A stretch of 42,410 bases of DNA, from positions 1 through 42,410 of the forward strand of contig CAADVN010000050.1 in assembly GCA_900752445.1 (NCBI GenBank), given 5' to 3'. The DNA comes from an uncultured Oscillospiraceae bacterium (GTDB lineage Bacteria; Bacillota; Clostridia; Oscillospirales; Oscillospiraceae). A program made the position numbers and the translations under genes. Positions 19,299 through 36,549 of this stretch are shown piece after piece. The first letter of the stretch is position 1. Each line of letters begins with the position of its first letter. The notes below the pieces were generated by a model. It was not told the DNA's origin and did no database searches. It was given only the letters and a program-made list of their open reading frames with translations.

Positions 19299-20720
19299 AT
19301 GGCAAACTCACCTAAGAGTAAAGACGGCCTCAAGCGCGCTATCTACCTGATCTTCATTTTCGGCGGTTTCGCTATCCTGCGCAACTTTGTGCCGAGCGGA
19401 CTGGATCAAGCGGGCTGGGACGGTTTTCTGGTATTATTCGTTGCGGTGCTGCTCTGGCTGACCGAGGCCGTGCCTATGGCGATAACCGCCATCTTTGTAC
19501 TGTTCTTCGGCGCGTGGGTCGGCTTTGAGGCCGAGGGCACGATACTCGCCGGCTTCTCAGGCACCGGCACCTTCTTCCTGCTCGGCGCAATGATCATCGG
19601 GCAGATCTTTTCCAAGGTCGGGCTCGGTAAGCGCATCTCGCTCTATCTGCTGCCCATGTTCGGCAACAAGCCCAAGGCGGTGCTGCTCGCCGTCATGCTC
19701 GGCACCTGCGTCGTATCCATGTTCCTCGCTGACATACCCACGGCGCTCATCTTCTTCAGCATCTGCACGCCCCTGCTCGAGCAGAACGGCTGCCAGCCCG
19801 GCAAGTCCAAGTTCGGCAAGGCCATAATGCTCGGCATCCCTGTCGGCGCCGCCATCGGCGGCATCGGCACCCCGGCCGGCAGCGGCATGAACGCCGTCAC
19901 GATGTCCCTGCTCAAGAGCATCTGCGACGTCGAGATCAGCTTTACACAGTGGTCCCTCGTCGGCGTGCCCGTCGCCATCGTCAGCATCGTCTTTGCATGG
20001 CTCTTCTTCTGCCTGATTTTCAAGCCCGAGATCACCGTTGTTAAGGGCCTTGAGTCCATCAAGGAAGACCGCAAGAACATCGGCCCCCTGCGCGGGGACG
20101 AGCTCAAGTTCACCATCGTCTTCGCCGTCATGCTCGTGCTCTGGTTCATCCCAAGCTACACCGGCATCGACATGTACATGACCGCCTGGGGCGGCATCTT
20201 CGTGATGTCCATGCCCGGCATGAACCTCGTAAACTGGAAGGAGCTAAACGGCAAGCTCGACTGGTCCGCCGTCATGATCTGCGGCGCGGCCACGGCCCTC
20301 GCCACCGTCGTCTCCAACCTCGGCACTGGCGAGTGGCTCAGCAACATCCTTGCCGACCTCTTCCTCGCCGACGTCGCCGGCATGGGCATGCTCGTGCTGC
20401 TCTTCGTCATCAACCTCATGATGATGGTCGGCCACTACCCGATGCCTCAGGGCGTCTCGCTCGCCGGCCTGTGTCTGCCCGTTGTCGGCGCGCTGGCATT
20501 GAACCTTGGGCTCAATCCCATCGTCGTATGCCTGCCGGTCTGCATGTCCACCAGCATGCTGCTGCTCGTCCCCATCGACCCCACCTGCTACACGACCTAC
20601 TCGGGCGGCTACTGGAAGATAAAAGACATGATGGGCACCGGTGTTATAATAACCCTTGGCTACGTGGTGATAAACACCGTCTGGACCGCTCTCATAGCCG
20701 TTACCGGCATACTCGGATAA
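19299..20720 (+). CDS. DASS/SLC13-type anion (di/tricarboxylate or similar) permease
   Basis: 473 aa and polytopic. LTEAVPMAITAI and GIPVGAAIGGIGTPAGSGMNAV resemble the paired hairpin motifs of DASS/ArsB-NhaD superfamily permeases. Confidence 0.8.
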   Translation: MANSPKSKDGLKRAIYLIFIFGGFAILRNFVPSGLDQAGWDGFLVLFVAVLLWLTEAVPMAITAIFVLFFGAWVGFEAEGTILAGFSGTGTFFLLGAMIIGQIFSKVGLGKRISLYLLPMFGNKPKAVLLAVMLGTCVVSMFLADIPTALIFFSICTPLLEQNGCQPGKSKFGKAIMLGIPVGAAIGGIGTPAGSGMNAVTMSLLKSICDVEISFTQWSLVGVPVAIVSIVFAWLFFCLIFKPEITVVKGLESIKEDRKNIGPLRGDELKFTIVFAVMLVLWFIPSYTGIDMYMTAWGGIFVMSMPGMNLVNWKELNGKLDWSAVMICGAATALATVVSNLGTGEWLSNILADLFLADVAGMGMLVLLFVINLMMMVGHYPMPQGVSLAGLCLPVVGALALNLGLNPIVVCLPVCMSTSMLLLVPIDPTCYTTYSGGYWKIKDMMGTGVIITLGYVVINTVWTALIAVTGILG

Positions 20721-20783
20721 CATGGGGCTCCAGGAGCGCGTTTCATCACCGGCCGCTGAAAATTCCCAACAGGAGGGAGAACC

Positions 20784-21239
20784 ATGATCAAGATGGATGC
20801 AACCGATTACGCGATCCTGGAGCTTTTGAAGAAAGACGGGAGGATGAGCTACTCGGACATCGCCGAGGAGGTACACCTCAGCCGCGTCGCGGTGCGCGAG
20901 CGGATAACCGCCATGAAAAACGACGGTATCATAAGGGGCTTTACCACCATCATCGACTCCAAGGCCTACAACAAGATGGCCGCGGTGTTCCTGGAGGTGG
21001 AGGTCGAGCCCTCGAAGATCGACAGGGTGGCGAACAAGCTCATGGAGAACCAGGACATCGCCATCGTCGCCCAGCACACCGGCAACGTTGGCCTGCACGT
21101 CCATGCCTATATCGAAAGCGTGGACAAGCTCTCGGACTTTCTGGACAAGTGCATATACAGCATCGACGGCGTGAAGAGCGTCTCGTCGAACCTGCTGATA
21201 CGCCAGTATAAGACCACGGCCTGGATCGCAAAATACTGA
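20784..21239 (+). CDS. Lrp/AsnC-family transcriptional regulator
   Basis: HTH_AsnC region DYAILELLKKDGRMSYSDIAEEVHLSRVAVRERI followed by a C-terminal RAM/AsnC_trans_reg-like domain. Confidence 0.9.
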   Translation: MIKMDATDYAILELLKKDGRMSYSDIAEEVHLSRVAVRERITAMKNDGIIRGFTTIIDSKAYNKMAAVFLEVEVEPSKIDRVANKLMENQDIAIVAQHTGNVGLHVHAYIESVDKLSDFLDKCIYSIDGVKSVSSNLLIRQYKTTAWIAKY

Positions 21240-21283
21240 CCGCTGCGAGCCGGGCGCGGACCAAGCAAAGGAGGAACACCCAA

Positions 21284-21814
21284 ATGTGGGAATTCAAGTT
21301 CTATTCCCGCGGCGGACAGGGTGCGGTAACAGCCGCGAAGATCCTGATAAACGCCGCAATAATCGAGGGTAAGTACGGACAGGCCATTCCCTCCTACGGT
21401 CAGGAGCGGAAGGGCGCGCCCGTATACACCTACGCGAGGATAGCCGAAGGCCCGATAGACGTTAAATCCTACGTCTACCGTCCCAACTGCGTCATCTGCT
21501 TCGACACCTCGCTCGCCGACCTCGGCATCGATATCACCGAGGGAGTCAGGCCCGGCTCCACGCTCATCGTCAACACCGACGACGCGGCGTATGAAAATCC
21601 CGCCTTTGAAAAGGTCTGCGTCATCGACGCGGACAAGATAACCCACGAGCTGCTCGGAGAGGTGCCGCCCAACGTCGCAATGCTCGGCGCGCTGGCCAAG
21701 GCCACGGGCTGCGTGGGCATAGAGAGCCTCAAGAAGGCCGTAATGAGCAAAATTCCCGGAAAGGCTGGTGAGAAAAATGCAGAAACTTGTGCAGCAGCGT
21801 ATGAAAATGCTTGA
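21284..21814 (+). CDS. 2-oxoacid:ferredoxin oxidoreductase, gamma subunit
   Basis: FYSRGGQGAVTAAKIL and SYGQERKGAP are typical of POR/VOR gamma subunits. Confidence 0.9.
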   Translation: MWEFKFYSRGGQGAVTAAKILINAAIIEGKYGQAIPSYGQERKGAPVYTYARIAEGPIDVKSYVYRPNCVICFDTSLADLGIDITEGVRPGSTLIVNTDDAAYENPAFEKVCVIDADKITHELLGEVPPNVAMLGALAKATGCVGIESLKKAVMSKIPGKAGEKNAETCAAAYENA

Positions 21815-22088
21815 GACGCTCCCGACCATCATCGGTCCCGTCTCCGTGAAGATCTCCGACGTGCACACCGGCGCATGGCGCTACCGCCGCCCCGTCATCC
21901 GCAAGGACGACTGCATCCGCTGCGGCATCTGCGCCACCTACTGTCCCTGCGGCGCCATCGAAAAGGCCGACGAGGGCATGGTCATAGACTACACCTACTG
22001 CAAGGGCTGCGGCATCTGCACCGTGGAGTGCCCGAAAAAGGCCATAGACTTCATCGAGGAGTCCAACTTCAGAAAGGAGGGCGAGTGA
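21768..22088 (+). CDS. 2-oxoacid:ferredoxin oxidoreductase, delta subunit (2x[4Fe-4S] ferredoxin)
   Basis: Two cluster motifs, CIRCGICATYCP and CKGCGICTVECP. The start is ambiguous: GTG 21768, or ATG at 21777, 21801 or 21807. It overlaps the end of the gamma gene. Confidence 0.85.
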   Translation: MRKMQKLVQQRMKMLETLPTIIGPVSVKISDVHTGAWRYRRPVIRKDDCIRCGICATYCPCGAIEKADEGMVIDYTYCKGCGICTVECPKKAIDFIEESNFRKEGE

Positions 22089-22089
22089 T

Positions 22090-23289
22090 ATGGGCGTCAT
22101 AAAAGCCCTTGACGGCAACGCGGCCATAGCCCACGGCGTCATGCGCTCGAAGGTGCAGCTCGTCGCGGCCTACCCCATCACGCCGCAGACCCCTATCGTG
22201 GAGACCATCTCCTCGCTTATCGATACCAAGCAGTACGACGCCACGTACATAACCGTGGAGTCGGAGCACTCGGCGCTCAGCTCGCTCATAGGCGCCTCGT
22301 CCACGGGCGTGCGCACCTTCACGGCGAGCGCGTCCCACGGCCTTGCGCTGATGCACGAGGTCACCGGCACCGCCGCAGCCTCCCGCCTGCCCATAGTCAT
22401 GGCCGTCGTCAGCCGTGCCATCCCGGGGCCGATGAGCCTCTGGTGCGACCACTCCGACATCATGACCCAGCGCGACCAGGGCTGGATACAGCTCTTCGCC
22501 GCGAGCCCCCAGGAGGCCCTCGACTTTGTGATGATAGCCTACCGCACGAGCGAGGACGAGCGTGTCCTCACCCCGACGATGGTGGACATCGACGGCTTCT
22601 TCTGCTCGCACCTCACGGAGCCCGTGGACGTGCCCACCGAGGAGGAGGCCGGGCGCTTCGTGAGGGACTTCGTGCCCGTGAATGCGACGCTCGACCCGGA
22701 TGTGCCCTATGCCATGAACAACCTGACCTCCCCGGCCATATTCACCGAGCTCAAGAGGTCGCAGGACATCGGCATGCGCTCCGCCGCGAAGGTGCTCGAC
22801 GAGCGCTTTGAGGAGTTTGCCGGCCTGTTCGGACGCCGGTACAGCCGCGTGATGTGCCACGAGACCGAGGACGCCGACACCGTCGTCGTCTGCATGGGCT
22901 CCATGTCCGGCACCGTGAAGCATGTGGTGAACGAGCTGCGCGCCTCCGGCAAAAAGGTCGGCGTCGCCCGCGTGGCCACGTTCAGGCCCTTCCCCTACAA
23001 GGAGCTGGCAGAGGCGCTCAAGGGCGCGAAGACCGTTGCCGTCATCGACCGTGTCTCCGGCATGGGCTCCTTCGGCCCGCTCTATGAGGAGGTGCTCTCC
23101 TGCCTGCGCATGGCGAAGCTCGACGCGAACGCCTACTCCTTCGTCGCCGGTCTCGGCGGCAGGGACATCTGGGAGCAGACCGTCGAAAACGTCATCGAGC
23201 GTGCGGAGGCCCTCGGCGGCAGCGAGGCCGTCTGCGAAGAGCCCATCTGGATTGACCTGAAGGAAGACGAGGTGAGATACAATGCCTGA
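22090..23289 (+). CDS. 2-oxoacid:ferredoxin oxidoreductase, alpha subunit
   Basis: 399 aa. AAYPITPQTPIVE and overall POR/VOR alpha-subunit features. Confidence 0.9.
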   Translation: MGVIKALDGNAAIAHGVMRSKVQLVAAYPITPQTPIVETISSLIDTKQYDATYITVESEHSALSSLIGASSTGVRTFTASASHGLALMHEVTGTAAASRLPIVMAVVSRAIPGPMSLWCDHSDIMTQRDQGWIQLFAASPQEALDFVMIAYRTSEDERVLTPTMVDIDGFFCSHLTEPVDVPTEEEAGRFVRDFVPVNATLDPDVPYAMNNLTSPAIFTELKRSQDIGMRSAAKVLDERFEEFAGLFGRRYSRVMCHETEDADTVVVCMGSMSGTVKHVVNELRASGKKVGVARVATFRPFPYKELAEALKGAKTVAVIDRVSGMGSFGPLYEEVLSCLRMAKLDANAYSFVAGLGGRDIWEQTVENVIERAEALGGSEAVCEEPIWIDLKEDEVRYNA

Positions 23290-24151
23290 ACTCGATCTGC
23301 TAAGCAAGGGGCTGACCACCTGCCAGGGCTGCCCGATGGAGCTCATCGGACGCGCCGCGCTGGAGACCCTCGGCCCCAGGACGATAACCATGACCCCGCC
23401 GAGCTGCTCGGCCATACTCACCGGCAACGGCGATGAGACCGGCTGGGGCATCCCCTCAGTGCAGACGGTGCTCATGAGCCTGCCCGCCTTTGCCTCCGGC
23501 GTGTCCGAGGCGCTGAAGATACGCGGCATGGACGATGTCACGGTCATGGGCTTTGCCGGCGACGGCGGCACCTTCGACATAGGCCTGCAGTCGCTCTCCG
23601 GCGCCATAGAGCGCGGGCACAAGGCCGTGTTCATCTGCTACAACAACGAGGCCTACATGAACACCGGCAACCAGCGCTCCAGCGCCACGACGCTCGGCGC
23701 CTCCACCAAGACCACGCCCACCGGCAAGAAGGAGTCCGCGAAGAACATCGACTTCATGCTGCTGCACACGCCGCTGGTCTACCAGGCCACGGCCTCCGTC
23801 GGCAACATCCCGGACTTCAAGCGCAAGCTGAAGAAGGCCTCCGAGAAGGACGGCCCCTGCTTCATCCACGTGCTCGCGCCCTGCCCCTCGGGCTGGAAGT
23901 TCCCCACAAGCCAGACCATCGAGGTCGCCAAGCTCGCCGTCAAGAGCGGCGCATGGCTCCAGTTCGAGCGTGAGAACGGCAAGATCACGATAAACCAGAA
24001 ACCCACCGATTTTGAGCTTATTAACGACTATCTCGACGGTCAGAAGCGCTTTGGCCGCGTGACGCCCGAGATACGCGAGCGCATCATTGCCGAGGCAAAG
24101 GGACGCTACGAGACGCTCTGCCGCCTCGCCGAGCTCGACTGCCTCGTGTGA
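23282..24151 (+). CDS. 2-oxoacid:ferredoxin oxidoreductase, beta subunit (TPP-binding)
   Basis: CQGCP near the N-terminus and the TPP motif GDGGTFDIGLQSLSGAIERGHKAVFICYNNEAYMNTGNQ. Confidence 0.9.
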   Translation: MPELDLLSKGLTTCQGCPMELIGRAALETLGPRTITMTPPSCSAILTGNGDETGWGIPSVQTVLMSLPAFASGVSEALKIRGMDDVTVMGFAGDGGTFDIGLQSLSGAIERGHKAVFICYNNEAYMNTGNQRSSATTLGASTKTTPTGKKESAKNIDFMLLHTPLVYQATASVGNIPDFKRKLKKASEKDGPCFIHVLAPCPSGWKFPTSQTIEVAKLAVKSGAWLQFERENGKITINQKPTDFELINDYLDGQKRFGRVTPEIRERIIAEAKGRYETLCRLAELDCLV

Positions 24152-24161
24152 GAAAGACCAT

Positions 24162-24199
24162 GCGGGCCGTCGGTCACAGAGCCGGACGGCCCGCTTTTT
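24162..24199 (+). terminator. Intra-locus hairpin with T-run (terminator or attenuator) between the oxidoreductase genes and the CoA-transferase gene
   Basis: GCGGGCCGTCGG-loop-CCGGACGGCCCGC followed by TTTTTG. Only about 20 nt then remain before the RBS of the CoA-transferase gene. Confidence 0.6.
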
Positions 24200-24217
24200 G
24201 ATGAGGAGGAACACAAA

Positions 24218-25777
24218 ATGGCCAGGATAATTTCCGCCGCCGAGGCCGTGGAGCTCATGCACGACGGCATGACGCTCGGAGTGAGCGGCTTCGGCGCTTT
24301 CGCATCTCCGGACACCATACTCGACGCCATGGGCGAGAGCTTCCGTGCCAAGGGCACGCCCCGGGCGCTCACCATCGTCTCCGGCGTCGCGCCCGGCGAC
24401 TTCCGCGAGGACGGCTGCGGCCTGTCCAAGATAAAGGACGAGGGCATCATAGACACGCTCATCGCCTCGCACCTGCGCATGTCCCCGGCTATAGGCCGGG
24501 CCTGCAGCGAGAACAGGATAGCCGCCTACACCATGCCCCTCGGCCTCTACGGCCAGCTCATGGCGGCCATTGGCGGACACAGGCCGGGTATCATAACCCA
24601 CGTCGGCCTCGGCACCTATGCCGACCCCAGGCAGGAGGGCTGCCGCATCAACGACAGGGCCAAGGAGCAGGGCCGCGAGATCGTCAGGCTCATGCAGATA
24701 GACGGCAAGGACTACCTCTTCTACAAGGCCTTCAGGATAGACGCCTGCATCCTGCACGCAAGCTACGCCGATGAGGACGGCAACATCTCCGCGCAGAGCG
24801 AGCCCATACGCAGCGACCTGCTCGAGCTCGCCGCCGCCGTGCACAACAACGGCGGCACCGTCATCGTCGAGGTGAACGAAATCGTCAAGGCCGGCTCCCT
24901 CGACCCCAAGCAGGTGCTCATACACAAGTCCTACGTGGACTATATCGTCCGCGCGAAGAAGCAGGACAACATCGCGCTCGAGTATTCGCCCCAGCTCACC
25001 GGCGACATCCGCATGCCCGACGGCCAGGGCGTGGCCCCGCTGCCCATGGGCTTCAAGAAGGTCATAGCCCGCCGCGCAGCCATGGAGCTGCAGCCCGGCA
25101 TGCTGGTGAACCTCGGCATAGGCATCCCCGCCTCCGTTGCCAACGTGGCGAATGAGGAGGGCCTGAGCGGGAAGCTGACGCTCTCGCTCGAGACTGGCGT
25201 CTACGGCGGCGTGCCGCTCGACGGGCCGCTCTTCGGCGCGGCGGTGAACCCCGACTCCATCTCACGCTCCTCGGACATGTTCACGACCTACGACGGTGGC
25301 GGCCTCGACCTCACCGTGCTCGGCTGTGCGGAGATAGACCCCTGCGGCAGCGTGAACGTCTCCAAATTCAGCGGGCGCTGCGTCGGTCCCGGCGGCTTTG
25401 TGAACATCTCCCAGAACACACCCAGGGTGCGTTTCGCCTTCTCCTTCACCTCCGGCAAGGCCGACATCGCCGTGGAGGACGGCAGGCTCGTCATCCGCCG
25501 CGACGGCGACGGGATAAAGTTCAAAAAGGCCCTCGACCACATCACCTTCTCCGGGGAATACGCCGCGCAGACGGGCCAGGACGTCATGTTCATAACCGAG
25601 CGCGCCGTCTTCCGCGTCCTTGACGGGAAGCTGACCCTCACCGAGATCGCCCCGGGCGTGGACCTCGAGCGCGACGTGCTCGCCAAGATGGAGTTCCGCC
25701 CCGTCATCGCTGAGGACCTGCACGAGATGGACGCGCGGCTCTTCCAGCCCGGCAAAATGGGCCTCGGCGAGGGCTGA
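24218..25777 (+). CDS. Family I acyl-CoA:carboxylate CoA-transferase (propionate CoA-transferase / YdiF type)
   Basis: 519-aa single-chain enzyme. From memory it is colinear with Clostridium propionicum Pct / E. coli YdiF: DGMTLGVSGFG, YADEDGNIS, VKAGSLDP, LSLETGVYGG (catalytic Glu region), YDGGGLDL. Confidence 0.85.
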   Translation: MARIISAAEAVELMHDGMTLGVSGFGAFASPDTILDAMGESFRAKGTPRALTIVSGVAPGDFREDGCGLSKIKDEGIIDTLIASHLRMSPAIGRACSENRIAAYTMPLGLYGQLMAAIGGHRPGIITHVGLGTYADPRQEGCRINDRAKEQGREIVRLMQIDGKDYLFYKAFRIDACILHASYADEDGNISAQSEPIRSDLLELAAAVHNNGGTVIVEVNEIVKAGSLDPKQVLIHKSYVDYIVRAKKQDNIALEYSPQLTGDIRMPDGQGVAPLPMGFKKVIARRAAMELQPGMLVNLGIGIPASVANVANEEGLSGKLTLSLETGVYGGVPLDGPLFGAAVNPDSISRSSDMFTTYDGGGLDLTVLGCAEIDPCGSVNVSKFSGRCVGPGGFVNISQNTPRVRFAFSFTSGKADIAVEDGRLVIRRDGDGIKFKKALDHITFSGEYAAQTGQDVMFITERAVFRVLDGKLTLTEIAPGVDLERDVLAKMEFRPVIAEDLHEMDARLFQPGKMGLGEG

Positions 25778-25803
25778 AGGCCGTGAAGGGAGGCGCCGCG
25801 GGC

Positions 25804-26388
25804 ATGAGCGGCAAGAGGATAATAGTCGGCATAAGCGGTGCTGACGGCGTCTCGCTGGGCGTCCGGCTGCTCTCTATGCTGCGCGGCATGGAGGGCGTGG
25901 AAACGCTGCTTATAATGAGCCGCGCTGCCGAGCGGAACCTTGAGATAGAGTGCCGCACCGCTCCGGAGGAGATACGCGCGCTCGCAGACCGCTGGTACGA
26001 GCCTGAGGACATGGCCGCCGAGGTCTCCAGCGGCTCGTTCTGGACGGACGGCATGATAGTCGCCCCGTGCAGCATGAAGACGCTCGCTGCCATCGCCCAC
26101 GGCTATTCGGAAAACCTGCTGGTGCGTGCGGCTGACGTGTGCCTCAAGGAGGGCCGCAAGGTCGTGCTCATGCCGCGCGAGACGCCGCTGGGCATCATAC
26201 ACATCAAAAACATGCTCGCCGCAGCCGAGGCCGGCTGCGCCATCGTGCCGCCCATGCTGACGTATTATAACCGGCCAGAGAGCCTGGACGAGGTTGCCGA
26301 CCACGTGCTCGGCAAGGTGCTGATGCAGTTCGGGCTCATCCCGCCGGACTTTAGGCCCTGGGGCGGGACTGAAAGGAGAATGCCATGA
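25804..26388 (+). CDS. ubiX: UbiX-family flavin prenyltransferase
   Basis: RIIVGISGADG, VAPCSMKTLAAIAHGYSENLLVRAADVCLKEGRKVVLMPRETPL. GGGAGG lies 10 nt upstream of the ATG at 25804. The stop overlaps the ubiD start (ATGA). Confidence 0.9.
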   Translation: MSGKRIIVGISGADGVSLGVRLLSMLRGMEGVETLLIMSRAAERNLEIECRTAPEEIRALADRWYEPEDMAAEVSSGSFWTDGMIVAPCSMKTLAAIAHGYSENLLVRAADVCLKEGRKVVLMPRETPLGIIHIKNMLAAAEAGCAIVPPMLTYYNRPESLDEVADHVLGKVLMQFGLIPPDFRPWGGTERRMP

Positions 26389-27599
26389 AGGATATGAGAT
26401 ACTGCCTCGAAAAGATGGAGGCCGCCGGACGCCTCGCGCGTGTCAAAACGCGCGTGGACGCCGTGCACGAGCTCTCCGGCCTGAGCGCGAAGCTCGAGGG
26501 CGGCAGGGCGCTGCTCTTTGAAAAGGTGAAGGGCTACGACTATCCCCTGACCACCGGCTGGTGGTGGAACCGCGACAACGTTGCGGCGATATTTGACCGC
26601 CCCGCGGCGGACATACCCTGGCTGTTTGCGGACGCGGTGGACTCGCTGCGCTCCGCGCCCGTCGCGCCGATAGTGGTGGACGACGCGCCCTGCCGCGAGG
26701 TCTGTTTTCCCGAACCGGACCTCACGAGGATACCCGTGCCCACGCACGCGCTGCTCGACGGCGGGCCGTACTTTTCAAACTGCGTCATCATTGCAAAGGA
26801 CCCGGACACCGGTGTGCGCAACACCTCTGTGCACAGGCTCATGGTCACGGGGCGCGACAGGCTGGGCCTGCTCATGGACGCGGGCCGCCACCTGCGCGAC
26901 TACTACGAGCGCGCCGAGGCGCGCGGTGAGCCGCTGGAGATAACCATAAACAACGGCGTGCACCCGGCATATTTCGTCGCCGCGACGACGCCGAGCTCCG
27001 CCGCGCCCATAGACGTGGACGAGCTGGCCGTGGCCTCGTACCTGCTGGGCGAGCCCGCGCGGCTGTGCCCTGGCGTCACGGTGGGCGTCGAGGCCGTGGC
27101 GGACGCCGAGCTGGTGATGGAAGCGGAGATACTGCCCCGCGTGCGCGAGCCGGAAGGCCCCTTCGGAGAGGTCAGTGGCTACTATGCCACGCGCGCTGAC
27201 CGCTGGGTCGTGAGGATAAAGCACATGTCCATGCGCCGCGACCCCATCATAAGCACGCTGCATCCGGGCAAGGAGGTCTGGAACGGCCAGGGCCTGGGCA
27301 TAGAGGCGAACCTGTTCCGCACGATAAGCCGCCAGGTGAAGGGGCTTAAAAACGTCTACATGACGCACGGCGGCAGCCACTACCATGTGGTGCTGCAAAT
27401 GGACCCGCCCGCGAACGGCATGGCGAAGAACGCGATAATGGCGGCCTTCGCGGCCTTTTCGGACCTGCAGATGGTGACGGTGGTGAACAGCGACGTGAAC
27501 ATTTTCGACGCCGAGGACGTAGAGCGCGCCCTGTGCACGCGCTGCGACCCGGCAAAGGACATCGTCATCATCCCCGGCGCCTTTGCTGTTGTTAGATAA
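26385..27599 (+). pseudogene. ubiD: UbiD-family prFMN-dependent decarboxylase, 5' part (about 399 native codons), interrupted by a mobile element
   Basis: UbiD-like from the N-terminus through ...RCDPAKDIVIIPGAF. The frame then reads 4 element-derived codons (AVVR) and stops. The missing C-terminus is found at 37860-38003 in the same codon phase. Confidence 0.85.
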
Positions 27600-27671
27600 G
27601 GAAGCAATAGAAGTGTAAAAAATTTTGCCGTTCCCGTCCGGCGCTTGCGCACTGCGCCGGACAGGTCGGGC

Positions 27672-29285
27672 TTATTCGTCGGGCAAGTCCACCTTGCCGA
27701 CAAAGGAGTAGTAGATTTCAATTTCCTGCCTGCGGTGCTTGTTCTCGTCGTAACTGCACTCATGCACTACGATCTTCTCGATAAACTCCCGCAGCAGGGT
27801 AGGGGTCAGCTCCTCAAAGCTGATGTGCCTGCGGACGATGTTCATAAAACGCTCCGCATTGACCGACGCTTCCTGCGCCTTGGAAAGCTCCGCTTGCAGC
27901 TCGGCGGCGTGTGCCCTGACCTGCCGCTGCTCGGCTTCATAGTCTGCGGAAAGTTCCGCAAAGCGTTCATCAGAAATACGCCCGGTCACACTGTCCTCAT
28001 AAAGCCGCTTGAAGATAGCGGACAGCTCCGCAATCCGCTTTTCGGCTGCGTCCAGTTCCTTTCGCTTGGCAGCGTTGCGGCGTTTGCCGCCGTCCTCGTT
28101 CTGCTCGATCAACAGCTTCATAAAATGCTTTTCGTGCTTGGCGGCGTAGGCGGTGATCTTCCTGAGATTCGCCGTCACGCCCGCTGTCAGAAGGTCAGTG
28201 CGGATAAAGTGCGCCGTGCAGCTCTTGACACGCCGTTTGTAGTTGCCGCAGATGTAGCAGTCCTGCTTGCGGGTCTTGTTCTCATACCGCTGCTGGTAAA
28301 GGACGCTGCCGCAGTCGGCGCAGAACAATATGCCGGAGAACAGACCGACTTCATCATAGCGGTTTGGACGCTTGCGCTGCTTGCGTAATTCCTGCACACG
28401 CTCCCATGTGGCAAGGTCAATGATTGGCTCATGGGTATTCTCGAAAATGACCTGTTTTTCTTCGGGATTTTCCACGCTTGATTTGACCTTGTAGGACACT
28501 TTCTCGGTCTTGAAGTTTACCGTATGCCCCAGATATTCCTTGCGTTCAAGGATATGGACAATCGTGTTGGTCGCCCACTTGTAGGGATAATCGGGGTAGT
28601 AACGGCGTGTGCTGCCTGTCCTGCGGTATTCCAATGTACCCGGTGTTGGGATTTGCTGCTCGGTCAATATACGGGCGATTTTGGTCGGACCGTTCCCGGC
28701 AAGGCACAAGCTGAAAATCTGCTTGACGACCGGGGCAGCTTCTTCGTCCACGATAAAGCGTCCGTCCTCGCCTTTGAGATAGCCATAGACCGGCTGACTT
28801 GTGATAGGCTTGCCACTCATGCCTTTGCTGCGGAAAACTGCCTTGATTTTCTTGCTCGTATCTCTCACCATCCATTCGTTGAAGATATTACGCAGAGGGG
28901 CAAAATCATTGTCGCCCTGTGCGCTGTCCACTCCATCGTTGATAGCGATAAAGCGAACGCCCCTTTGTGGGAAAATCATGTCCGTATACATTCCCACTTG
29001 GAGATAGTTTCGCCCTAATCTCGACATATCCTTGACAATGACCGTTCCGACTTTCCCGGCTTCAATATCCGCAAGCATGGCCTGAAAACCGGGTCTTTGG
29101 AAGTTCGCACCGGAGTACCCATCGTCCGTGTACCATTGGAGATTGGTAAAGCCGTTCTGCTTTGCATAGCTTTCCAAAATACGCTTCTGGTTGGAGATGG
29201 AATTACTCTCGCCCTGCAATTCATCTTCATGGGATAATCTCGGATAAAGGGCAGTAATGAGGTTTTGGGTTGTCTGTCTAATCAT
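27672..29285 (-). CDS. Large serine recombinase (TnpX/TndX-like)
   Basis: N-terminal resolvase domain YPRLSHEDELQGESNSISNQ...DDGYSG...VKDMSRLGRN, a recombinase domain, a zinc ribbon (CADCGSVLY...CYICGNY) and a C-terminal coiled coil. GGAGG lies 5 nt before the ATG at 29285; the track start is 29297. Confidence 0.92.
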   Translation of the reverse strand: MIRQTTQNLITALYPRLSHEDELQGESNSISNQKRILESYAKQNGFTNLQWYTDDGYSGANFQRPGFQAMLADIEAGKVGTVIVKDMSRLGRNYLQVGMYTDMIFPQRGVRFIAINDGVDSAQGDNDFAPLRNIFNEWMVRDTSKKIKAVFRSKGMSGKPITSQPVYGYLKGEDGRFIVDEEAAPVVKQIFSLCLAGNGPTKIARILTEQQIPTPGTLEYRRTGSTRRYYPDYPYKWATNTIVHILERKEYLGHTVNFKTEKVSYKVKSSVENPEEKQVIFENTHEPIIDLATWERVQELRKQRKRPNRYDEVGLFSGILFCADCGSVLYQQRYENKTRKQDCYICGNYKRRVKSCTAHFIRTDLLTAGVTANLRKITAYAAKHEKHFMKLLIEQNEDGGKRRNAAKRKELDAAEKRIAELSAIFKRLYEDSVTGRISDERFAELSADYEAEQRQVRAHAAELQAELSKAQEASVNAERFMNIVRRHISFEELTPTLLREFIEKIVVHECSYDENKHRRQEIEIYYSFVGKVDLPDE

Positions 29286-29426
29286 GGTTTCCTCCATTTC
29301 CGACAGCCAGCCCCGCTATTCCGTAAGGAAATTATATCACACGGGGCGGCTGTCTGTATAGCTGGTAAATGTGAATTTTGCTTCTTTATCGCCCGTCATT
29401 ATGACGATTTTTTGGAATTAGGCTTG

Positions 29427-29630
29427 TCATGCAGTATAACTTGGCTTGTGTGTAGCTGCGGTTTCCGCTTCAAGCACTTTCATCATCTTGTCGGCTGCGG
29501 TGGCTGTGGTATCTTTCTTGAAAAAGCCGGACACAACAAGCACGGTGTTACCCATGCGGATCTCCGTCACGCAGTCCGGGCGGCGGTCGGTGCGGTCATT
29601 GTTATTCTGTTTGTTTTCTGTCATAGGCAA
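29427..29630 (-). CDS. Small protein, possibly TnpW-like (transposon-encoded)
   Basis: 67-aa ORF between the recombinase and DnaC-like genes. From recall only, ...MGNTVLVVSGFFKKDTTATAADKMMKVL resembles the small TnpW proteins of Tn4451-type elements. Confidence 0.45.
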   Translation of the reverse strand: MPMTENKQNNNDRTDRRPDCVTEIRMGNTVLVVSGFFKKDTTATAADKMMKVLEAETAATHKPSYTA

Positions 29631-29636
29631 CTCCTT

Positions 29637-30476
29637 TCACTTCAACAGTTCTTTTAGTCCATTGAGCTTGGCTTGTGCCGTTTCCTTTCGGAAGTTCTCG
29701 CCTGTAAAGAGGATAGGCAGACACATTTCAAGCACTCGGTCATAGATACGGGCGTGGGCGGTGTCCTGTGGATTTTGCAGTTCCGTAAGGCTTAGATTGG
29801 TGGTGACAATCAGCGGCTTTCGGCTGCGGTATCGGCTGTCAATTACATTGTAGACCTGTTCCAAACCGTACTCTGTGCCACGCTCCATACCAAAATCATC
29901 AAGTATCAGCAGAGGGAAACGGCAAAGACGCTCGATATATTCGTTTCGCCCCTCAAAGCTGGCAGTTAAATCATTCAGTATCGCAGAAAAGTTTGTCATG
30001 CGGACGGAGATTTCCTGTTCCATAAGGGCATTGGCAATGCACCCGGCAAAATAGCTTTTTCCTGTGCCTACCTTGCCCCACAAGAGCAGACCATAGTTGT
30101 TTTCTCTCATCTGCTCCCAATGCTCCACATATAAATGTGCCTTGCTCATCTGCGGGCATTTGCCGTTGTCATGTGCAAAAGTCCATTCCTGCATGGTGAG
30201 GTCGGTAAAGCCCCGGCGTTTCAGTTCCATAACGGTGTCAAGGTGTCGTCTGCGTTCCTCGGCGGATTCACATTCCAAACGCTTCTCCCGTTGGCAGTCA
30301 CATTCTGTCGGGTGCTTGTCATGCCCCAACCATGCGGCGGTTTCTTTGGGAAAGTAGGCTTCTTTCGCCGTGCGGCACTTGCCGCAGTAAAGCAGACCGT
30401 CCTCGCCCGTGTAGTCCTCCGGCTCTGCGGTAGTAGTCATCATATTCAAAACGGTATCGGTAAAAAGTTCAGTCAT
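29637..30476 (-). CDS. DnaC/IstB-like AAA+ ATPase (replication helper)
   Basis: Walker A LLLWGKVGTGKS and Walker B LLILDDFGMER, with a Cys-rich N-terminal region. Its start overlaps the end of the replisome-organizer gene. Confidence 0.85.
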   Translation of the reverse strand: MTELFTDTVLNMMTTTAEPEDYTGEDGLLYCGKCRTAKEAYFPKETAAWLGHDKHPTECDCQREKRLECESAEERRRHLDTVMELKRRGFTDLTMQEWTFAHDNGKCPQMSKAHLYVEHWEQMRENNYGLLLWGKVGTGKSYFAGCIANALMEQEISVRMTNFSAILNDLTASFEGRNEYIERLCRFPLLILDDFGMERGTEYGLEQVYNVIDSRYRSRKPLIVTTNLSLTELQNPQDTAHARIYDRVLEMCLPILFTGENFRKETAQAKLNGLKELLK

Positions 30477-31216
30477 AAACTCTCGCCCTCCTTAAAGGTG
30501 TAATCGGGTATGCCTTTTTTCGGCGGTTTCTTGGCTTCGTCCTCCTGCGCCCACTTGTATATCGTGGCTGCATGGCTACGGTATTTCGTTCCTTTGGACG
30601 CTATATGAGTAGATAAGCGGTCAATATAATACTCCCATTTGTCGGGCAGTTCCGCTTTCAGCTCGTCCAGTTCCGTATCGGAAAGAAAAACATTGTTGTA
30701 TCTGCCATAGCTGCGGGCGGGGGCTTGTCCCGTTTCTAACTCTCTCTCTTTTTCTATCTCTATATCTATCTCTTTCTTTATCTCTATCTCTGGTGGACGA
30801 ATGTCGGACAAATGTCCGCCGTTTGTCCGGGGTGGTGGCAAAGCCTTGTTTGCAAGCCTTGCTGCCCGTTTTCGTTCCGCTTCGGTAGAGGATTGCCCTA
30901 TCATCAGTTCAATATCGGTCATGTAGAGCAAGCCGCCGTGTAGCTGCTCCACAAGCCCCAACTGCTGAAAAATCCCTAACGCCCGTTCCACCGTGCCTAC
31001 CTGCTGACGGGTAAGAGTGGCGATCATCTGTGCTGTGTAAGGGATATTCTCGTCAAGCTGCAACTTGCCGCCGTTTTTCAGCGATTTTAAGTACAGCTTC
31101 AAGAGAATGTTGGAATAGAGAATACCGTCCGGCATACTCTCCAACAGCACGATAGCGTCATCATCAAAATAGCTTTCTTTCAGTTTGAGGTAGTAATATT
31201 TGCGGTTATCTGCCAT
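30473..31216 (-). CDS. Phage-type replisome organizer / DnaD-like protein
   Basis: The N-terminus MADNRKYYYLKLKESYFDDDAIVLLESMPDGILYSNILLKLYL matches the phage replisome organizer N-terminal domain pattern. Confidence 0.8.
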   Translation of the reverse strand: MADNRKYYYLKLKESYFDDDAIVLLESMPDGILYSNILLKLYLKSLKNGGKLQLDENIPYTAQMIATLTRQQVGTVERALGIFQQLGLVEQLHGGLLYMTDIELMIGQSSTEAERKRAARLANKALPPPRTNGGHLSDIRPPEIEIKKEIDIEIEKERELETGQAPARSYGRYNNVFLSDTELDELKAELPDKWEYYIDRLSTHIASKGTKYRSHAATIYKWAQEDEAKKPPKKGIPDYTFKEGESL

Positions 31217-31400
31217 AGGCGGTGTCCTCCTTTGGTTTCCAACGCTTGGAGTAATACCGGTGGCAGAGGATAATCACGGTTCGGAAACTCTGCTTGCAAT
31301 CGTGGGTGCAGCCCCGGCAAAGGTCGTTATAGGTAATTCGGTTTCGGTGGTTGAGGAAAAAGCTCCATTCAAGCCGCCGTTTGTTGCTCATGCGTGGCAT
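31206..31400 (-). CDS. Small Cys-rich hypothetical protein
   Basis: MPRMSNKRRLEWSFFLNHRNRITYNDLCRGCTHDCKQSF...LCHRYY. AAAGGAG lies 7 nt upstream of the ATG at 31400, and the gene overlaps the next start. Function unknown. Confidence 0.5.
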   Translation of the reverse strand: MPRMSNKRRLEWSFFLNHRNRITYNDLCRGCTHDCKQSFRTVIILCHRYYSKRWKPKEDTAYGR

Positions 31401-31585
31401 TGGTACGCTCCTTTCTGCCGTTTCCGTGGGTATCACGGATAGGGCGGGAAAACTGTATCTTCTCGGTATCATTTTCGGGGATTTTTTGCCCTGTACGCCC
31501 TGTTTTGAGGTCGGGGAGTATTGCGGATAGGGGTAAGGGCATATCCCTGTTTTTGTTTGGTTTCGGTATCATTTCGGGGCGGTTT

Positions 31586-33211
31586 TTAACGCTCCTGTTC
31601 ATGCTTTTTCTGTCGGCTCGGCTCGCCGTGGTGCATTTGGGAAAGATTGCTTTTCATGGTCTGCAACTCCCGGACACGCTCTTTATTTGCCCGGTACTCG
31701 TTGTAAAGGGCGTTCTTCTCGGCGGTAAGCTGCTCGATTTCAGCCTGCAACGATTTATAGGTGGGCAGCTTGGTAATGCCTTTTTGCCGAAAATATCTTA
31801 CGGCTGCGTCTGCTATGATAAAGTCGCTTTCATGCTTTTCCCGGTAGGCTTTGCGTGCCTTATCGGTTTTCTGCTTTTTCAATCCGTCACGCACATCTCT
31901 TGTCTTGGCATAGGCAAGCACCTGTTTCTGCAAGTCCTTTTTCTCACGGATAGCCGTTTCAATGGGCTTCAGCTTGGCGGTGCTGCTGTGTAAATCCGCA
32001 TTGGCAGACACAAGGGCTGCGTCCAGTTCATCCGGGGTAAAGCCGTATTGCTCCATAGCGGCAACGGTAGCCGCCATCTGTTTGAGATTGTGGACAGCCG
32101 CCCAACGGTCATAGCCGATACCTTTTCCCTCGGCTCGCTTCGCCGCACGGTCAACCATTCTCTGAATGTTGCCTGTCGGGGCGATTTTCTGCGTTTTTCC
32201 TCGCTCTGTGCGGTTTGTTTCAGCGGTATGGTATTCGGGTATGGGTACGGTCTTTTCGGCGGCTCTGTGGGCGTTCTGCTCCAAAAGAGTAAGAACAGCA
32301 GCACGGTCAAAATCATCTCCCAGTTTTCGGGCGGTAATGGGTTTCGTTCTGTCCGGGGTAAGGTAGGACAATCGCCCTCGGCTCTCTTTGACGGTCACGC
32401 CCTGTTGCAGAAGTAAAGCGGAAAACTCGTCAAAGGTGGTCGCTTCGCTCATGGCATTCCGTATGGTCTGCCGCAACTTCGCCTTGTCGGTTTCAAACTT
32501 GGTCTGCTTTACAGGCTTCCCCTCGGCTGCAAGGGCGGCATTTTCCTTGTCAAGTTTGGCTTGTCCTTTTTTATGCGCCCAATACTCACGCTCGGTAATG
32601 CGGTTTTTGCTGCCATGCAATAGGTCAATCTGATAGAGATTTTCCCGGTGGCACATCTCCATGACCTCGGCTTTGAAGTATTCCATAGCAGCGTCCGTAC
32701 AGCGGTGCTTGCACCCGGCACGGGTATCTGCCGGTCTGTCCATGTAGGGCAGTAAGGGTACTTCCTCGATACGCAGAGAATTGATAACAATGTGAACATG
32801 GATATTGCCGCTGTGGTTGTGTCCGTCCGGGTGGGTACAGACAATGGCTTGGTGTCCTGGGAAATGCTCGGCACAAAATTCCTCGCCCAATGCTTGCGCC
32901 CGGTCTACGGTCAAGCCGTTGTCCGCTGCGTCCCGTGGGTCAAAGGAAATGATATAGTGGTGGCTTTTCACATCTTCCCGTTTTTGGTTCTTGCCGTATC
33001 GGAGATTTGCCCGCATACAGGCAACGGCAAAATCTTCCTCGCCGCAGTTCAGCGTGGCTATTCGGTAATCCTCCCGGAGTATGAGCCGCCCGGCTTCGTC
33101 AAGGGTGGGCTTCATGGTAAACTCGTCATGCTCAAAGGTTAGATACTGCTCGGCTGCACCGTAGTCCGCATTTTTAGAGCTGATATGCTTGAATGTTGCC
33201 AACAGCGTCAC
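31586..33211 (-). CDS. Relaxase/mobilization nuclease (MobA/VirD2 family)
   Basis: N-terminal Tyr region (SKNADYGAAEQYL), the histidine triad HPDGHNHSGNIHVHIVINS, and a long coiled-coil C-terminus. The start is GTG at 33211 or TTG at 33202. Confidence 0.9.
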   Translation of the reverse strand: MTLLATFKHISSKNADYGAAEQYLTFEHDEFTMKPTLDEAGRLILREDYRIATLNCGEEDFAVACMRANLRYGKNQKREDVKSHHYIISFDPRDAADNGLTVDRAQALGEEFCAEHFPGHQAIVCTHPDGHNHSGNIHVHIVINSLRIEEVPLLPYMDRPADTRAGCKHRCTDAAMEYFKAEVMEMCHRENLYQIDLLHGSKNRITEREYWAHKKGQAKLDKENAALAAEGKPVKQTKFETDKAKLRQTIRNAMSEATTFDEFSALLLQQGVTVKESRGRLSYLTPDRTKPITARKLGDDFDRAAVLTLLEQNAHRAAEKTVPIPEYHTAETNRTERGKTQKIAPTGNIQRMVDRAAKRAEGKGIGYDRWAAVHNLKQMAATVAAMEQYGFTPDELDAALVSANADLHSSTAKLKPIETAIREKKDLQKQVLAYAKTRDVRDGLKKQKTDKARKAYREKHESDFIIADAAVRYFRQKGITKLPTYKSLQAEIEQLTAEKNALYNEYRANKERVRELQTMKSNLSQMHHGEPSRQKKHEQER

Positions 33212-33581
33212 CTACCTTTCGCAAGACTTCAAACTTCAAGGCGGCAAGGTCGGAAATGGCGGCTCGCACTTCAACGGACAGCGTATTGTAGGGCGTTCCG
33301 TATTCGTTGAGGGCACGGGCGATCTGATTAAGGTTGCCGCCGATTTTTCCGTATTCGGCTATCAACTTTCCAACAGCGGACAGCAGTTCATCATTGACCG
33401 GGGAAACGGTAACAATGGGGCGAATGGTCGCCCTTGTAATGGCTTGTCGGATAAACTCGGCTTGGCTCATGTCATAATTCTTTAGCCGTTCCGTGAAGTC
33501 GGCATATTCTTCTTCGGTCATGCGTGTCTTGACTACATGGCTTCGGTGGGGCGTATTGTATCGCTTTCCTATGGGTATCAA
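33174..33581 (-). CDS. mobC: MobC-type relaxosome accessory protein
   Basis: RMTEEEYADFTERL...SQAEFIRQAI and GKIGGNLNQIARALN match the MobC family. The start codon is uncertain because the TTG at 33581 abuts the RBS. Confidence 0.85.
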   Translation of the reverse strand: MIPIGKRYNTPHRSHVVKTRMTEEEYADFTERLKNYDMSQAEFIRQAITRATIRPIVTVSPVNDELLSAVGKLIAEYGKIGGNLNQIARALNEYGTPYNTLSVEVRAAISDLAALKFEVLRKVGDAVGNIQAYQL

Positions 33582-33867
33582 CTCCTTTCACTTACCGCCG
33601 TTTTGTGGGCGATTTTTTAAGTATTTTTTGGTGGGATTTTCAAGCGGCACAAGCCGCATAGCAGGGTTTGGGGAAGGCACTCCCCAACAAGATTCCGATG
33701 GGGCAGAATGAGCGAACGGCGAATTATGGCACCTCGGTAGAATCTTGCTCTGACAACTCACGCTCTGCTCCTGCCGTAAAACTGCGTATTTCTCCCTCTG
33801 CTGCCTACAACGACAGGAAAGGCATTTTGCCAAAGAATGTGGATAATTTTTTTGAAAAAATGGGCGT

Positions 33868-33894
33868 GAAAAAACGGCTTGCCATGCAAACCGT
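33868..33894 (-). terminator. Minus-strand hairpin with T-run in the non-coding stretch upstream of mobC
   Basis: The minus strand reads ACGGTTTGC-ATG-GCAAGCCGT followed by TTTTTTCAC. Confidence 0.4.
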
Positions 33895-33981
33895 TCAAAA
33901 AACATATACTTGATTTATGAGAAATCAACCTGAGATCAGGGAGGGCAGGCACAGCTTGTGCTTGCCCTCCTTGTCTGCCGA

Positions 33982-34061
33982 AAAGCGAAACAAGCTGCGG
34001 CTGTCAATGGCGCGTAAGCGTTTATCTCGACCATTGACGGGTGCAGCCTGTTTTGCTATCT
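33982..34061 (+). repeat. Direct repeat copy A (left of the cargo block)
   Basis: It aligns without gaps to 37700-37779. By my manual count, 57 of 80 positions are identical. Perfect blocks are CTGTCAATGGCG (34001-34012) and GCCTGTTTTGCTATCT (34046-34061). It contains the stem GTCAATGG / CCATTGAC. Confidence 0.7.
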
Positions 34062-34445: not shown

Positions 34446-34483
34446 GCCGGACTGGTGATTAGTCGGCTTGTGCGCCTTTTTCT
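34437..34483 (+). terminator. Compound hairpin with T-run (terminator, or alternatively an oriT-like site)
   Basis: Outer stem GGCGCA / TGCGCC and inner stem GCCGGACT / AGTCGGC, followed by TTTTT (34477-34481). Confidence 0.5.
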
Positions 34484-35434: not shown

Positions 35435-35436
35435 GT

Positions 35437-36540: not shown

Positions 36541-36549
36541 TTAAACCAC

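Follow-up and report, generated by a model that had tools for sequence, protein, structure and literature searches.

Background

UbiX makes the prenylated flavin mononucleotide (prFMN) for UbiD-family (de)carboxylases, enzymes that are very common in anaerobes and of which few have a known physiological role. In the anaerobic phthalate pathway, for example, a UbiD-type phthaloyl-CoA decarboxylase works together with succinyl-CoA:phthalate CoA-transferase and UbiX. A 2026 study of p-cresol formation described a pathway in which a 2-oxoacid:ferredoxin oxidoreductase (OFOR) is followed by Pta/Ack or an ADP-forming ligase for the acyl-CoA and then by a terminal decarboxylase; in the oxidative branch from tyrosine, these steps belong to the HpdDEFG oxidoreductase, the HpdJ/HpdK phosphotransacylase/kinase, and the HPAD decarboxylase (PMC13285125). 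Here we analysed a stretch of 42,410 nucleotides from an uncultured Oscillospiraceae bacterium (GenBank assembly GCA_900752445.1, contig CAADVN010000050.1; the whole stretch is hereafter called the window), in which nine genes (19299-27599, all on the plus strand) form one unit according to open reading frame (ORF), Pfam/NCBIfam profile, and translation evidence. These genes encode a DASS-family permease, an Lrp/AsnC-family regulator, a four-subunit OFOR, a CoA-transferase, UbiX, and UbiD, and the Hpd-type architecture is present in this operon, with functions that are predicted from the genes.

A candidate three-step route for an imported 2-oxoacid

We propose that the operon encodes a linear route (R-CO-COO- to R-CO-SCoA to R-COO- to R-H) for the energy-yielding catabolism of one imported anion, and we put the probability of this reading at about one half. 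The four-subunit, ferredoxin-dependent OFOR would first oxidatively decarboxylate a 2-oxoacid to an acyl-CoA. The YdiF-type CoA-transferase would then move the CoA to another acid, such that the thioester energy is kept and the free acid is released, a step that would fall to an ADP-forming acyl-CoA synthetase (ACD) in some other operons and to an acyl kinase plus phosphotransacylase in more distant relatives. In the terminal step, UbiD, with prFMN from UbiX and an LpdD chaperone encoded outside the operon, would take off the last carboxyl. We infer the direction of flux and the order of the steps from the gene content, and the permease might serve either uptake or an exchange of substrate and product. 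UbiD chemistry as known requires a carboxyl on an sp2 carbon, and R is therefore most likely aromatic or heteroaromatic, which would make the substrate an aryl- or heteroarylglyoxylate-type compound. The operon gives one UbiD clade a metabolic context and suggests a three-step route to ATP and reduced ferredoxin; if aryl or heteroaryl 2-oxoacids are the substrates, the products would be small host-active aromatics such as indoles and phenols.

A UbiD that most likely acts on a free acid

The window UbiD has the three-domain architecture of its family (UbiD_N, UbiD, UbiD_C), scores 257 bits against TIGR00148 (cut-off 244.85), and has its UbiX partner gene directly beside it. Numerous homologues of 445-446 residues were found, and the catalytic network of E257, R151, and E262 was invariant in 25 homologues, with R151 and E262 corresponding to R155 and E266 of AnInD, the indole-3-carboxylate decarboxylase of Arthrobacter nicotianae. 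Compared with solved structures, the window UbiD scored 321 bits to AnInD, 298 to PtHmfF, 193 to AroY, and 50 to phthaloyl-CoA decarboxylase (8oz5/8pmk). One half of a 92-row UbiD tree, anchored by PDB searches, was that of HmfF (anchor L086, with 446 bits to 6h6v), and the other contained the AnInD group (anchor L033, with 586 bits to 7p9q). The window UbiD and its orthologues formed a separate 20-row clade on the AnInD side (SH-aLRT 100), outside the InD group, which was a different clade of 23 rows.

One active-site position is informative about the substrate. Mutagenesis of AnInD shows that D169 is important for activity, and this residue was proposed to bind the indole N-H (PMC8988006). 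The equivalent D165 of the window UbiD (in LLMDAGRHL) was invariant in its own clade (18/18) and in the InD group (23/23), and the position was deleted in all 33 of the 33 HmfF-group sequences. Near this Asp, there were consistent differences from AnInD (H150 vs Q, L163 vs N, R171 vs E, and Y174 vs L). Because the Asp is kept but neighbouring positions differ, the substrate is probably related to that of AnInD and not identical to it, and the conserved Asp suggests a ring that carries an N-H or O-H group.

Orthologues with 68-73% identity to the window UbiD stand alone at eight loci (L008-L011, L013, L088, L089, and L103), with only LpdD or UbiX beside them, in hosts including Mailhella, Intestinibacter, Phascolarctobacterium, a Desulfobulbaceae metagenome-assembled genome (MAG), and Accumulibacter. 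No CoA enzymes were found within 8-10 kb of these stand-alone, ~70% identical orthologues, and in the five stand-alone genomes searched for the OFOR (L008-L011 and L013) the best match to its alpha subunit was at most 40% identical. Residues 150-175 around the active-site Asp were the same in the stand-alone and operon copies. Since these orthologues occur without CoA chemistry, the UbiD substrate is most likely a free acid and not a CoA ester. Exact-sequence look-ups of the UbiDs of loci L013, L016, and L019 returned no match.

Some side observations concern the surroundings of these relatives. A Flavin_Reduct-family gene lies directly before one stand-alone orthologue with 70% identity (L089, 9366-11350), and it may serve prFMN handling in an anaerobe. 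A sister-clade UbiD of Desulfotruncus arcticus (52% identical; L019, 2743-17763) is clustered with a GntR regulator, an MFS carrier, an SDR, a glycyl-radical enzyme with its activase, a D-2-hydroxyacid dehydrogenase, an Ldh_2-family dehydrogenase, and a CitMHS transporter, and another sister-clade member (L016) lies with a PucR-type regulator and a Bmp-type ABC binding protein. These contexts are suggestive of N-heterocyclic acids for the sister clade, a hint that is not transferable to the clade of the window.

An interchangeable gene for handling the thioester

The CoA-transferase of the window aligned with E. coli YdiF (2ahu) over residues 4-515 with 375 bits, and its fused alpha- and beta-like PF01144 halves, together with this closeness to YdiF, mark it as a family I enzyme. 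Its LSLETGVYGG stretch (around E325) aligned with LESGPLGG of the paralogue described below; E325 is thus a candidate for the catalytic Glu of the beta-like half, as in YdiF. In four related loci (L004/L005, with UbiD 69% identical, and L006/L007, with UbiD 61% identical), an ACD alpha and beta pair stands in place of the CoA-transferase, all else is kept, and OFOR-beta and ACD-alpha share an overlap of 10 nt; L004 matches a Hydrogenoanaerobacterium record, and ADP-forming 3-hydroxypropionate and 4-hydroxybutyrate CoA ligases were among the PDB matches. More distantly, operons with OFORs that are 46-50% identical (L114-L116) carry an acetate-kinase-like gene and a PTA_PTB gene within 3 nt after the OFOR, and also a TRAP transporter, a DASS permease, and an IclR regulator, without UbiD. 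Textbooks give three routes by which an acyl-CoA becomes a free acid with its energy conserved: a CoA-transferase, an ADP-forming synthetase, or a kinase with a phosphotransacylase. Because the same slot is filled by an ACD or by Ack-like and Pta genes, the transferase belongs with the OFOR product and not with the UbiD substrate.

Two further loci illustrate variants around this slot. At L106 (G306:C11, 5207-13605), an IclR gene adjoins two complete four-subunit OFOR sets that flank one YdiF-like CoA-transferase, with no UbiD or permease adjacent, and the same genome has a VdcC-type UbiD and UbiX on another contig (L110). At L115 (G437:C3, 2292-12056), the OFOR, Ack-like, and Pta genes are followed by a ketopantoate-reductase-family dehydrogenase, a family that includes D-mandelate dehydrogenases, and by two carbon-nitrogen hydrolases; this layout would suit a route from a nitrile or amide via a 2-hydroxyacid and a 2-oxoacid to an acid.

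These results bear on the model of the first-pass annotation of this DNA, in which the transferase, with the acyl-CoA of the OFOR as donor, activates an imported acid and UbiD then decarboxylates the thioester. Its assignment of the transferase to family I (Pct/YdiF-like) rather than family III was confirmed by PF01144 and the likeness to YdiF; the thioester decarboxylation itself was not. In favour of this model, the transferase gene is followed closely by ubiX and ubiD (a 5 nt gap and an ATGA overlap), a transferase, UbiD, and UbiX trio is the known phthalate architecture, and ACD-superfamily enzymes are also able to activate acids (ADP-forming CoA ligases were among the PDB matches). Against these stand the 50 bits to phthaloyl-CoA decarboxylase versus 321 to AnInD, the position of UbiD in the free-acid InD/HmfF superclade, the ~70% identical orthologues with no CoA enzyme within 8-10 kb, a transferase of the wrong family for the phthalate system, and the replacement of the transferase by an ACD, which needs no acyl-CoA donor and yet is kept with the OFOR through a 10-nt gene overlap. 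The same annotation had named a UbiD lying inside a clade with a known free-acid substrate as an outcome contrary to its model; the window UbiD comes close, as a sister to such a clade, without lying inside it. We therefore consider the decarboxylation of a thioester very unlikely here, and a CoA-transferase, UbiX, and UbiD trio alone should not be annotated as a sign of it.

A paralogous operon with an unrelated UbiD

A second operon, here called V-type to distinguish it from the I-type of the window, was found in two species of the same genus (L105, G302:C56, 2896-11859; L108, G324:C179, 1606-11094). It comprises LpdD, a divergent IclR gene, OFOR gamma, delta, alpha, and beta (43-46% identical to those of the window), a DASS permease (43%), a YdiF-like transferase (47%), UbiD, and UbiX, with the permease between OFOR-beta and the transferase, gaps of 5-77 nt, and the IclR regulator where the I-type has Lrp/AsnC. 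The V-type UbiD is of the VdcC type, with 461 bits to the hydroxyarylic-acid decarboxylase model and 33% identity to the window UbiD; VdcC-type UbiD also occurs alone with UbiX in other species (L107, L109, L110, and L112). Because two unrelated UbiD lineages are joined to paralogous OFOR, permease, and transferase sets, a chance neighbourhood is unlikely, and a linear pathway with a ring carboxylate at its end is favoured. The substrates of VdcC-type enzymes are ring-bound carboxylates, and in the simplest logic the OFOR and transferase would therefore deliver a ring-carboxylic acid, which needs an arylglyoxylate-type 2-oxoacid.

UbiD genes of the InD group adjoin an OFOR at two loci (L050 and L052), an adjacency that suggests an arylglyoxylate logic there too. 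In the former (5474-11341, an Alphaproteobacteria MAG), the AnInD-group UbiD is divergent to a Pad-type OFOR with an added 581-aa FAD/FeS subunit; this OFOR resembles NADH-dependent phenylglyoxylate dehydrogenase, and luciferase-like monooxygenases, an SDR, and a PEP-mutase-family gene lie around it.

The same components could also be arranged with UbiD first, such that an imported dianion with a ring or vinyl carboxylate and a 2-oxoacid chain is decarboxylated by UbiD and then converted by the OFOR and the transferase or ACD to an acid and ATP. A DASS carrier, typical for dianions, is present in every variant, in the hmf pathway CoA activation comes only after the relative HmfF has decarboxylated a dicarboxylate, and at locus L060 UbiD is directly followed by ACD alpha and beta. 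This order would, however, leave the 2-oxoacid product without a dedicated sink in the searched stand-alone-UbiD genomes, which lack this OFOR (matches of at most 40%), and the I-type and V-type operons would each need a different, rare class of carboxylated aryl-2-oxoacid; the related OFOR operons without UbiD also fit better with UbiD as an optional last step. We regard this arrangement as unlikely, and continue with the order in which UbiD acts last.

Going beyond the window, we tentatively suggest, as a possibility that we still doubt, an arylglyoxylate fermentation operon family in gut Oscillospiraceae and related Clostridia, with an I-type (InD-like UbiD, Lrp) and a V-type (hydroxyarylic-acid-type UbiD, IclR), that would convert (hetero)aryl 2-oxoacids to neutral arenes and two CO2 with a gain of reduced ferredoxin and one ATP equivalent. 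If true, arylglyoxylate fermentation would be an unrecognised energy metabolism and a new gut source of bioactive aromatics of the indole, pyrrole, and phenol type.

Substrate clues from the oxidoreductase and the permease

The OFOR consists of alpha, beta (binding thiamine pyrophosphate, TPP), gamma, and delta (two [4Fe-4S]) subunits. Its alpha subunit scored below the cut-offs of all NCBIfam models considered (score/cut-off: PorA 437/550, PadG 303/700, VorA 302/646, oxalate enzyme 258/500); the best of these was the PorA match. It scored 298 bits against the four-subunit pyruvate:ferredoxin oxidoreductase (PFOR) 9bt4 and 244 against oxalate oxidoreductase. The Thr of YPITP and an Arg are kept, in alignment with T31 and R114 of DaPFOR. 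Two specific identities were rejected: that of a 2-oxoglutarate oxidoreductase, as the Kor/Oor models scored below 100 bits, and that of an oxalate oxidoreductase, as the position of T31 is held by Thr and not Arg. The pocket residues, Met/Leu in the I-type and Trp/Leu in the V-type and a Pad-type relative, are too ambiguous for naming a substrate. The DASS permease had only ~100 bits to VcINDY, from which no substrate is deducible, and a pattern search of the I-type and V-type permeases found no S-N-T-like motif of the kind at the hairpin tips of Na+/dicarboxylate symporters such as VcINDY, a result that we do not use as evidence.

Several points weigh against the proposed route. The OFOR alpha is closer to POR/VOR models (437 bits) than to the phenylglyoxylate enzyme PadG (303 bits), and its pocket at DaPFOR L121/I123 is Met/Leu, with no obvious enlargement. 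Di- and tricarboxylates are the best-known cargo of DASS carriers, but a simple arylglyoxylate has a single negative charge. The replacement of this slot alone leaves the direction unfixed, since CoA-transferases, ACDs, and Ack/Pta can each work both ways, and gene order is no proof of reaction order. No arylglyoxylate is known to be abundant in guts. Finally, a hairpin lies between OFOR-beta and the CoA-transferase in all transferase-type operons, and the two halves of the operon may be expressed differently. In the window, this hairpin, which the first-pass annotation had placed at the same position and considered as a possible full terminator, folds with -33.9 kcal/mol (z = -2.9) and has a U5 tail, although a pattern-based terminator scan did not list it. 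Hairpins of different sequence occur at the same position in loci L001, L090, and L092, and the ACD-type operons, in which the genes overlap by 10 nt, have no gap there. In a metatranscriptome run (X15), short contigs along the operon had a depth of 2-4, which is no proof of transcription.

The conserved hairpin is also what would be expected if the two halves were parallel branches that are only co-regulated, with the OFOR and transferase oxidising one compound (e.g., pyruvate or an amino-acid-derived 2-oxoacid) and UbiD/UbiX serving an unrelated aromatic acid; for instance, one dietary conjugate, cleaved by an enzyme whose gene lies elsewhere, could supply both substrates. True PFORs are what the OFOR resembles most, UbiD orthologues stand alone elsewhere, and OFOR relatives occur without UbiD, all of which agree with two branches. 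The association nevertheless has two or more origins, in which different lineages of UbiD joined paralogous sets of OFOR genes. In addition, the V-type permease gene is placed after OFOR-beta and before the transferase in a run of genes 5-77 nt apart, LpdD and UbiD bracket the OFOR genes in Dysosmobacter welbionis-type loci, and all genes overlap or abut in ACD-type loci. Parallel branches thus appear quite unlikely to us, and a single linear route remains our preferred reading.

A precise insertion that splits ubiD

In the window, ubiD is broken by an insertion, as had been noticed from the letters alone: its frame runs to Phe400 (27582-27584), continues with four foreign codons, and stops at 27599, and the remaining 46 codons, starting with GHELNP, lie 10.3 kb away at 37863-38003. 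The two parts joined give 446 aa, equal to the length of the intact homologues P0003 and P0004 (98-99% identical). The truncated ORF loses H402-E403-L404-N405-P406, which are invariant in the UbiD family alignment, and with them the active-site-closing Leu (AnInD L409; its equivalence to L404 follows from a constant +5 alignment offset), such that the C-terminal part is incomplete in the window ORF and complete in the intact allele. The uninterrupted site (GGCGCC-TT-CGGxCAxGAG) was found in five sister species, and position 27581 was joined to 37860 in contigs of three DNA runs from three bird-gut studies, with flanks more than 99% identical; these joined contigs skip exactly 10,278 bases, with a 2-base ambiguity (TT). 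From the empty sister sites and the joined metagenome contigs, it follows that the insertion is real, precise, and polymorphic and that the intact allele is common. Judged from the reading frame, the UbiD step is switched off in this genome by a serine-recombinase element in codon 400, and precise loss of the element would be predicted to restore ubiD. If the proposed route is true, arylglyoxylate use in this genome would be gated by a reversible mobile-element insertion, and the polymorphic insertion offers natural on/off strains.

As for the element itself, its backbone (within 27311-33780: the recombinase and the regions up to ~30.5 kb and at 32.5-33.8 kb) was covered 50-1900x in four bird-gut runs, and the flanking operon was covered only 9-48x in the three DNA runs, far below the backbone. 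Other organisms of the bird-gut communities must therefore carry the backbone widely. The block at 33.8-37.6 kb (33781-37662) had essentially no read cover in the four runs, and this low-G+C cargo seems specific to this assembly.

Conservation and distribution of the operon

The first-pass annotation had asked whether the gene neighbourhood is conserved, and the order was indeed kept across genera at 62-95% UbiD identity, in agreement with the nine genes being a functional unit. The full gene set in the same order surrounds UbiD orthologues that are 75-80% identical in L001-L003 (78%) and L090/L091, and the same set occurs in L092-L094, where the OFOR alpha has a record under Dysosmobacter welbionis and appears in the index of 3152 sample blocks; these D. 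welbionis-type loci open with LpdD (5') and close with UbiD (3'), with the OFOR genes bracketed by the two. Within the genus of the window, four species carry the operon colinearly with 79-90% DNA identity, and the operon is present in 6-7 of 33 species, i.e., it is patchy and accessory. A search for orthologues in an even sample of 300 genomes of the order found none, which indicates rarity among those searched and not absence. The Lrp/AsnC gene is present in all I-type operons, in some of them upstream of the permease, and a DASS gene is kept in every operon variant, even when non-orthologous (37% identity in L006 and 43% in the V-type; also in L114 and L116). The operon set is widespread in human and bird gut metagenomes.

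This distribution is relevant to a route in reverse, in which UbiD would carboxylate an arene or acid, the transferase or ACD would activate the product, and the OFOR would reductively carboxylate it to a 2-oxoacid for amino-acid synthesis. Each of these enzymes can run in both directions, rumen bacteria reductively carboxylate arylacetates and branched acids to amino-acid precursors, and Lrp/AsnC regulators are often responsive to amino acids. However, a patchy accessory cluster (6-7/33 species in the genus, 0/300 in the order) is unlike biosynthesis, the IclR regulator of the V-type is typical of catabolic operons, and the reverse route would need two uphill carboxylations and ATP for a product of no obvious value, with UbiD carboxylation depending on high CO2 and a pull. 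Of the readings considered, we find this one the least probable, and highly improbable in itself, and we retain the catabolic direction.

Gene content, gene calls, and host

The earlier description of nine co-oriented genes with short gaps held up (63, 44, -38, 1, -8, 66, 5, and -4 nt; Table 1), as did the ATGA overlap of ubiX and ubiD. For OFOR delta, we used the frame of ORF 21768-22088, whose translation contains two CxxCxxCxxxCP motifs (CIRCGICATYCP and CKGCGICTVECP), and its length of 103 aa and overlap with gamma are the same as in orthologues; a competing ORF (21875-22102) has no Cys. The upstream neighbours of the operon are FtsH, a maltodextrin/amylase locus, and PheST (housekeeping or unrelated), and downstream lies an integrative-element remnant; because of these unrelated surroundings, we regard the operon as a whole unit.

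Table 1. Positions of the operon genes, the hairpin, and the inserted element in the window
Feature	Position	Strand	Evidence or remark
DASS-family anion permease, first gene of the operon	19299..20720	+	PF00939 185 bits; TIGR00785 223.1 vs cut-off 198.6
Lrp/AsnC-family transcription regulator	20784..21239	+	PF13404, PF01037
OFOR gamma	21284..21814	+	PF01558 130 bits; TIGR02175 182 bits
OFOR delta, 2x[4Fe-4S] ferredoxin-like, overlaps gamma end	21777..22088	+	PF00037, PF12838
OFOR alpha	22090..23289	+	PF01855, PF17147; PorA_Arch 437 bits, below 550 cut-off
OFOR beta, TPP-binding	23282..24151	+	PF02775; NF008818 300 bits
GC-rich hairpin with U5 tail, terminator- or attenuator-like	24162..24199	+	between OFOR-beta and CoA-transferase
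Fused family I CoA-transferase (YdiF/Pct/FadX-type)	24218..25777	+	PF01144 in two stretches; FadX model 344 bits
UbiX flavin prenyltransferase (prFMN synthase)	25783..26388	+	PF02441 143 bits; NF004685 230 bits vs cut-off 188
UbiD residues 1-400 (N-terminal, prFMN-binding, most of C-terminal domain)	26385..27584	+	PF20695, PF01977, PF20696
Integrative element, 10,278 bp, boundaries ±2 nt, crossover dinucleotide TT	27582..37859		empty sites and joined contigs
Large serine recombinase, left end of the element	27672..29297	-	PF00239, PF07508, PF13408, PF14287
UbiD C-terminal remnant (Phe400 codon, GHELNP... to stop)	37860..38003	+	frame 37749-38003 ends ...AFGHELNPVVRGNVAAKMGFDCTYPVPKPPEYTRVSFMDVDPGKYDIR

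The source genome is a metagenome-assembled genome of 2.46 Mb in 317 contigs, and the ubiD of this operon is its single UbiD gene. Near-identical DNA occurs in chicken and other bird gut metagenomes; with ~62% G+C and Oscillospiraceae/Dysosmobacter relatives, the host belongs to Oscillospiraceae-type Clostridia of the bird gut, and its earlier description as Clostridium-type was not upheld. The only LpdD-type chaperone gene of the genome lies outside the operon, on contig C114 (10221-10532; 7129-7536 in L104), where it adjoins a radical-SAM/SPASM gene and a PLP-dependent decarboxylase, and no tie to the operon was seen there. Directly before the permease, where relatives have LpdD, there is a 114-codon ORF (18932-19276) with no Pfam match, which may be no gene, and promoter-like hexamers are located upstream of the permease at 18966-18993 and 19051-19078. 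Near the left end of the window, a MazF/PemK-type toxin gene is encoded on the minus strand (690-1052).

Comparison with known systems

A full-text literature search found no description of this gene set, and the papers on riboflavin degradation and on OFOR-driven indole-3-acetic acid production contained no mention of UbiD. The anaerobic phthalate system likewise encodes a CoA-transferase, UbiD, and UbiX together, but the window UbiD is distant from its decarboxylase (50 bits), the family I transferase of the operon can be swapped for an ACD, and orthologues of its UbiD occur elsewhere without CoA enzymes. PadEFGHI, the phenylglyoxylate oxidoreductase of Azoarcus/Aromatoleum, resembles the proposed first step in its type of reaction (arylglyoxylate to aroyl-CoA), and Pad models match the three large OFOR subunits with 142, 303, and 202 bits. 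These scores are under those of the POR/VOR models and far under the Pad cut-offs, the window operon has no FAD subunit, and the Pad product benzoyl-CoA goes to ring reduction instead of release and decarboxylation.

Among characterised UbiD enzymes, PtHmfF (6h6v), the 2,5-furandicarboxylate decarboxylase of the HmfF/HmfG system, is the second-best solved relative and shares with the operon a UbiD and UbiX pair, with a free heteroaromatic acid as the known substrate of the former and a probable one of the latter, and the JGI auto-annotation labels homologues of the window UbiD by the HmfF name. HmfF nevertheless belongs to the other half of the tree, and the Asp position is absent from its group. 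The hmf pathway itself was rejected, as the window UbiD lies outside the HmfF group and no hmfABCDE-type genes were among the annotated genes in or beside the operon. AnInD (7p9q), the top-scoring solved relative, shares the catalytic Glu-Arg-Glu and the Asp, but the window UbiD lies in a separate clade with ~45-47% identity to the InD group, and its substrate need not be indole-3-carboxylate. We know of no reported link of AnInD to an oxidoreductase.

The oxidative Hpd branch is similar to the operon: in both, a single cluster in an anaerobic Firmicute encodes a four-subunit ferredoxin-dependent OFOR, enzymes for an energy-conserving conversion of acyl-CoA to acid, and a terminal decarboxylase that makes a neutral aromatic product from the acid, by prediction in the case of the operon. 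It differs in that the operon ends in a prFMN-dependent UbiD and not a glycyl-radical enzyme (the genes annotated in the operon or next to it include none), in that the acid would be aroyl and not arylacetyl, and in that the operon uses a family I CoA-transferase and includes a DASS permease and an Lrp regulator. By analogy, the design would work like the oxidative Hpd branch but end in a prFMN enzyme, a combination that appears to be new.

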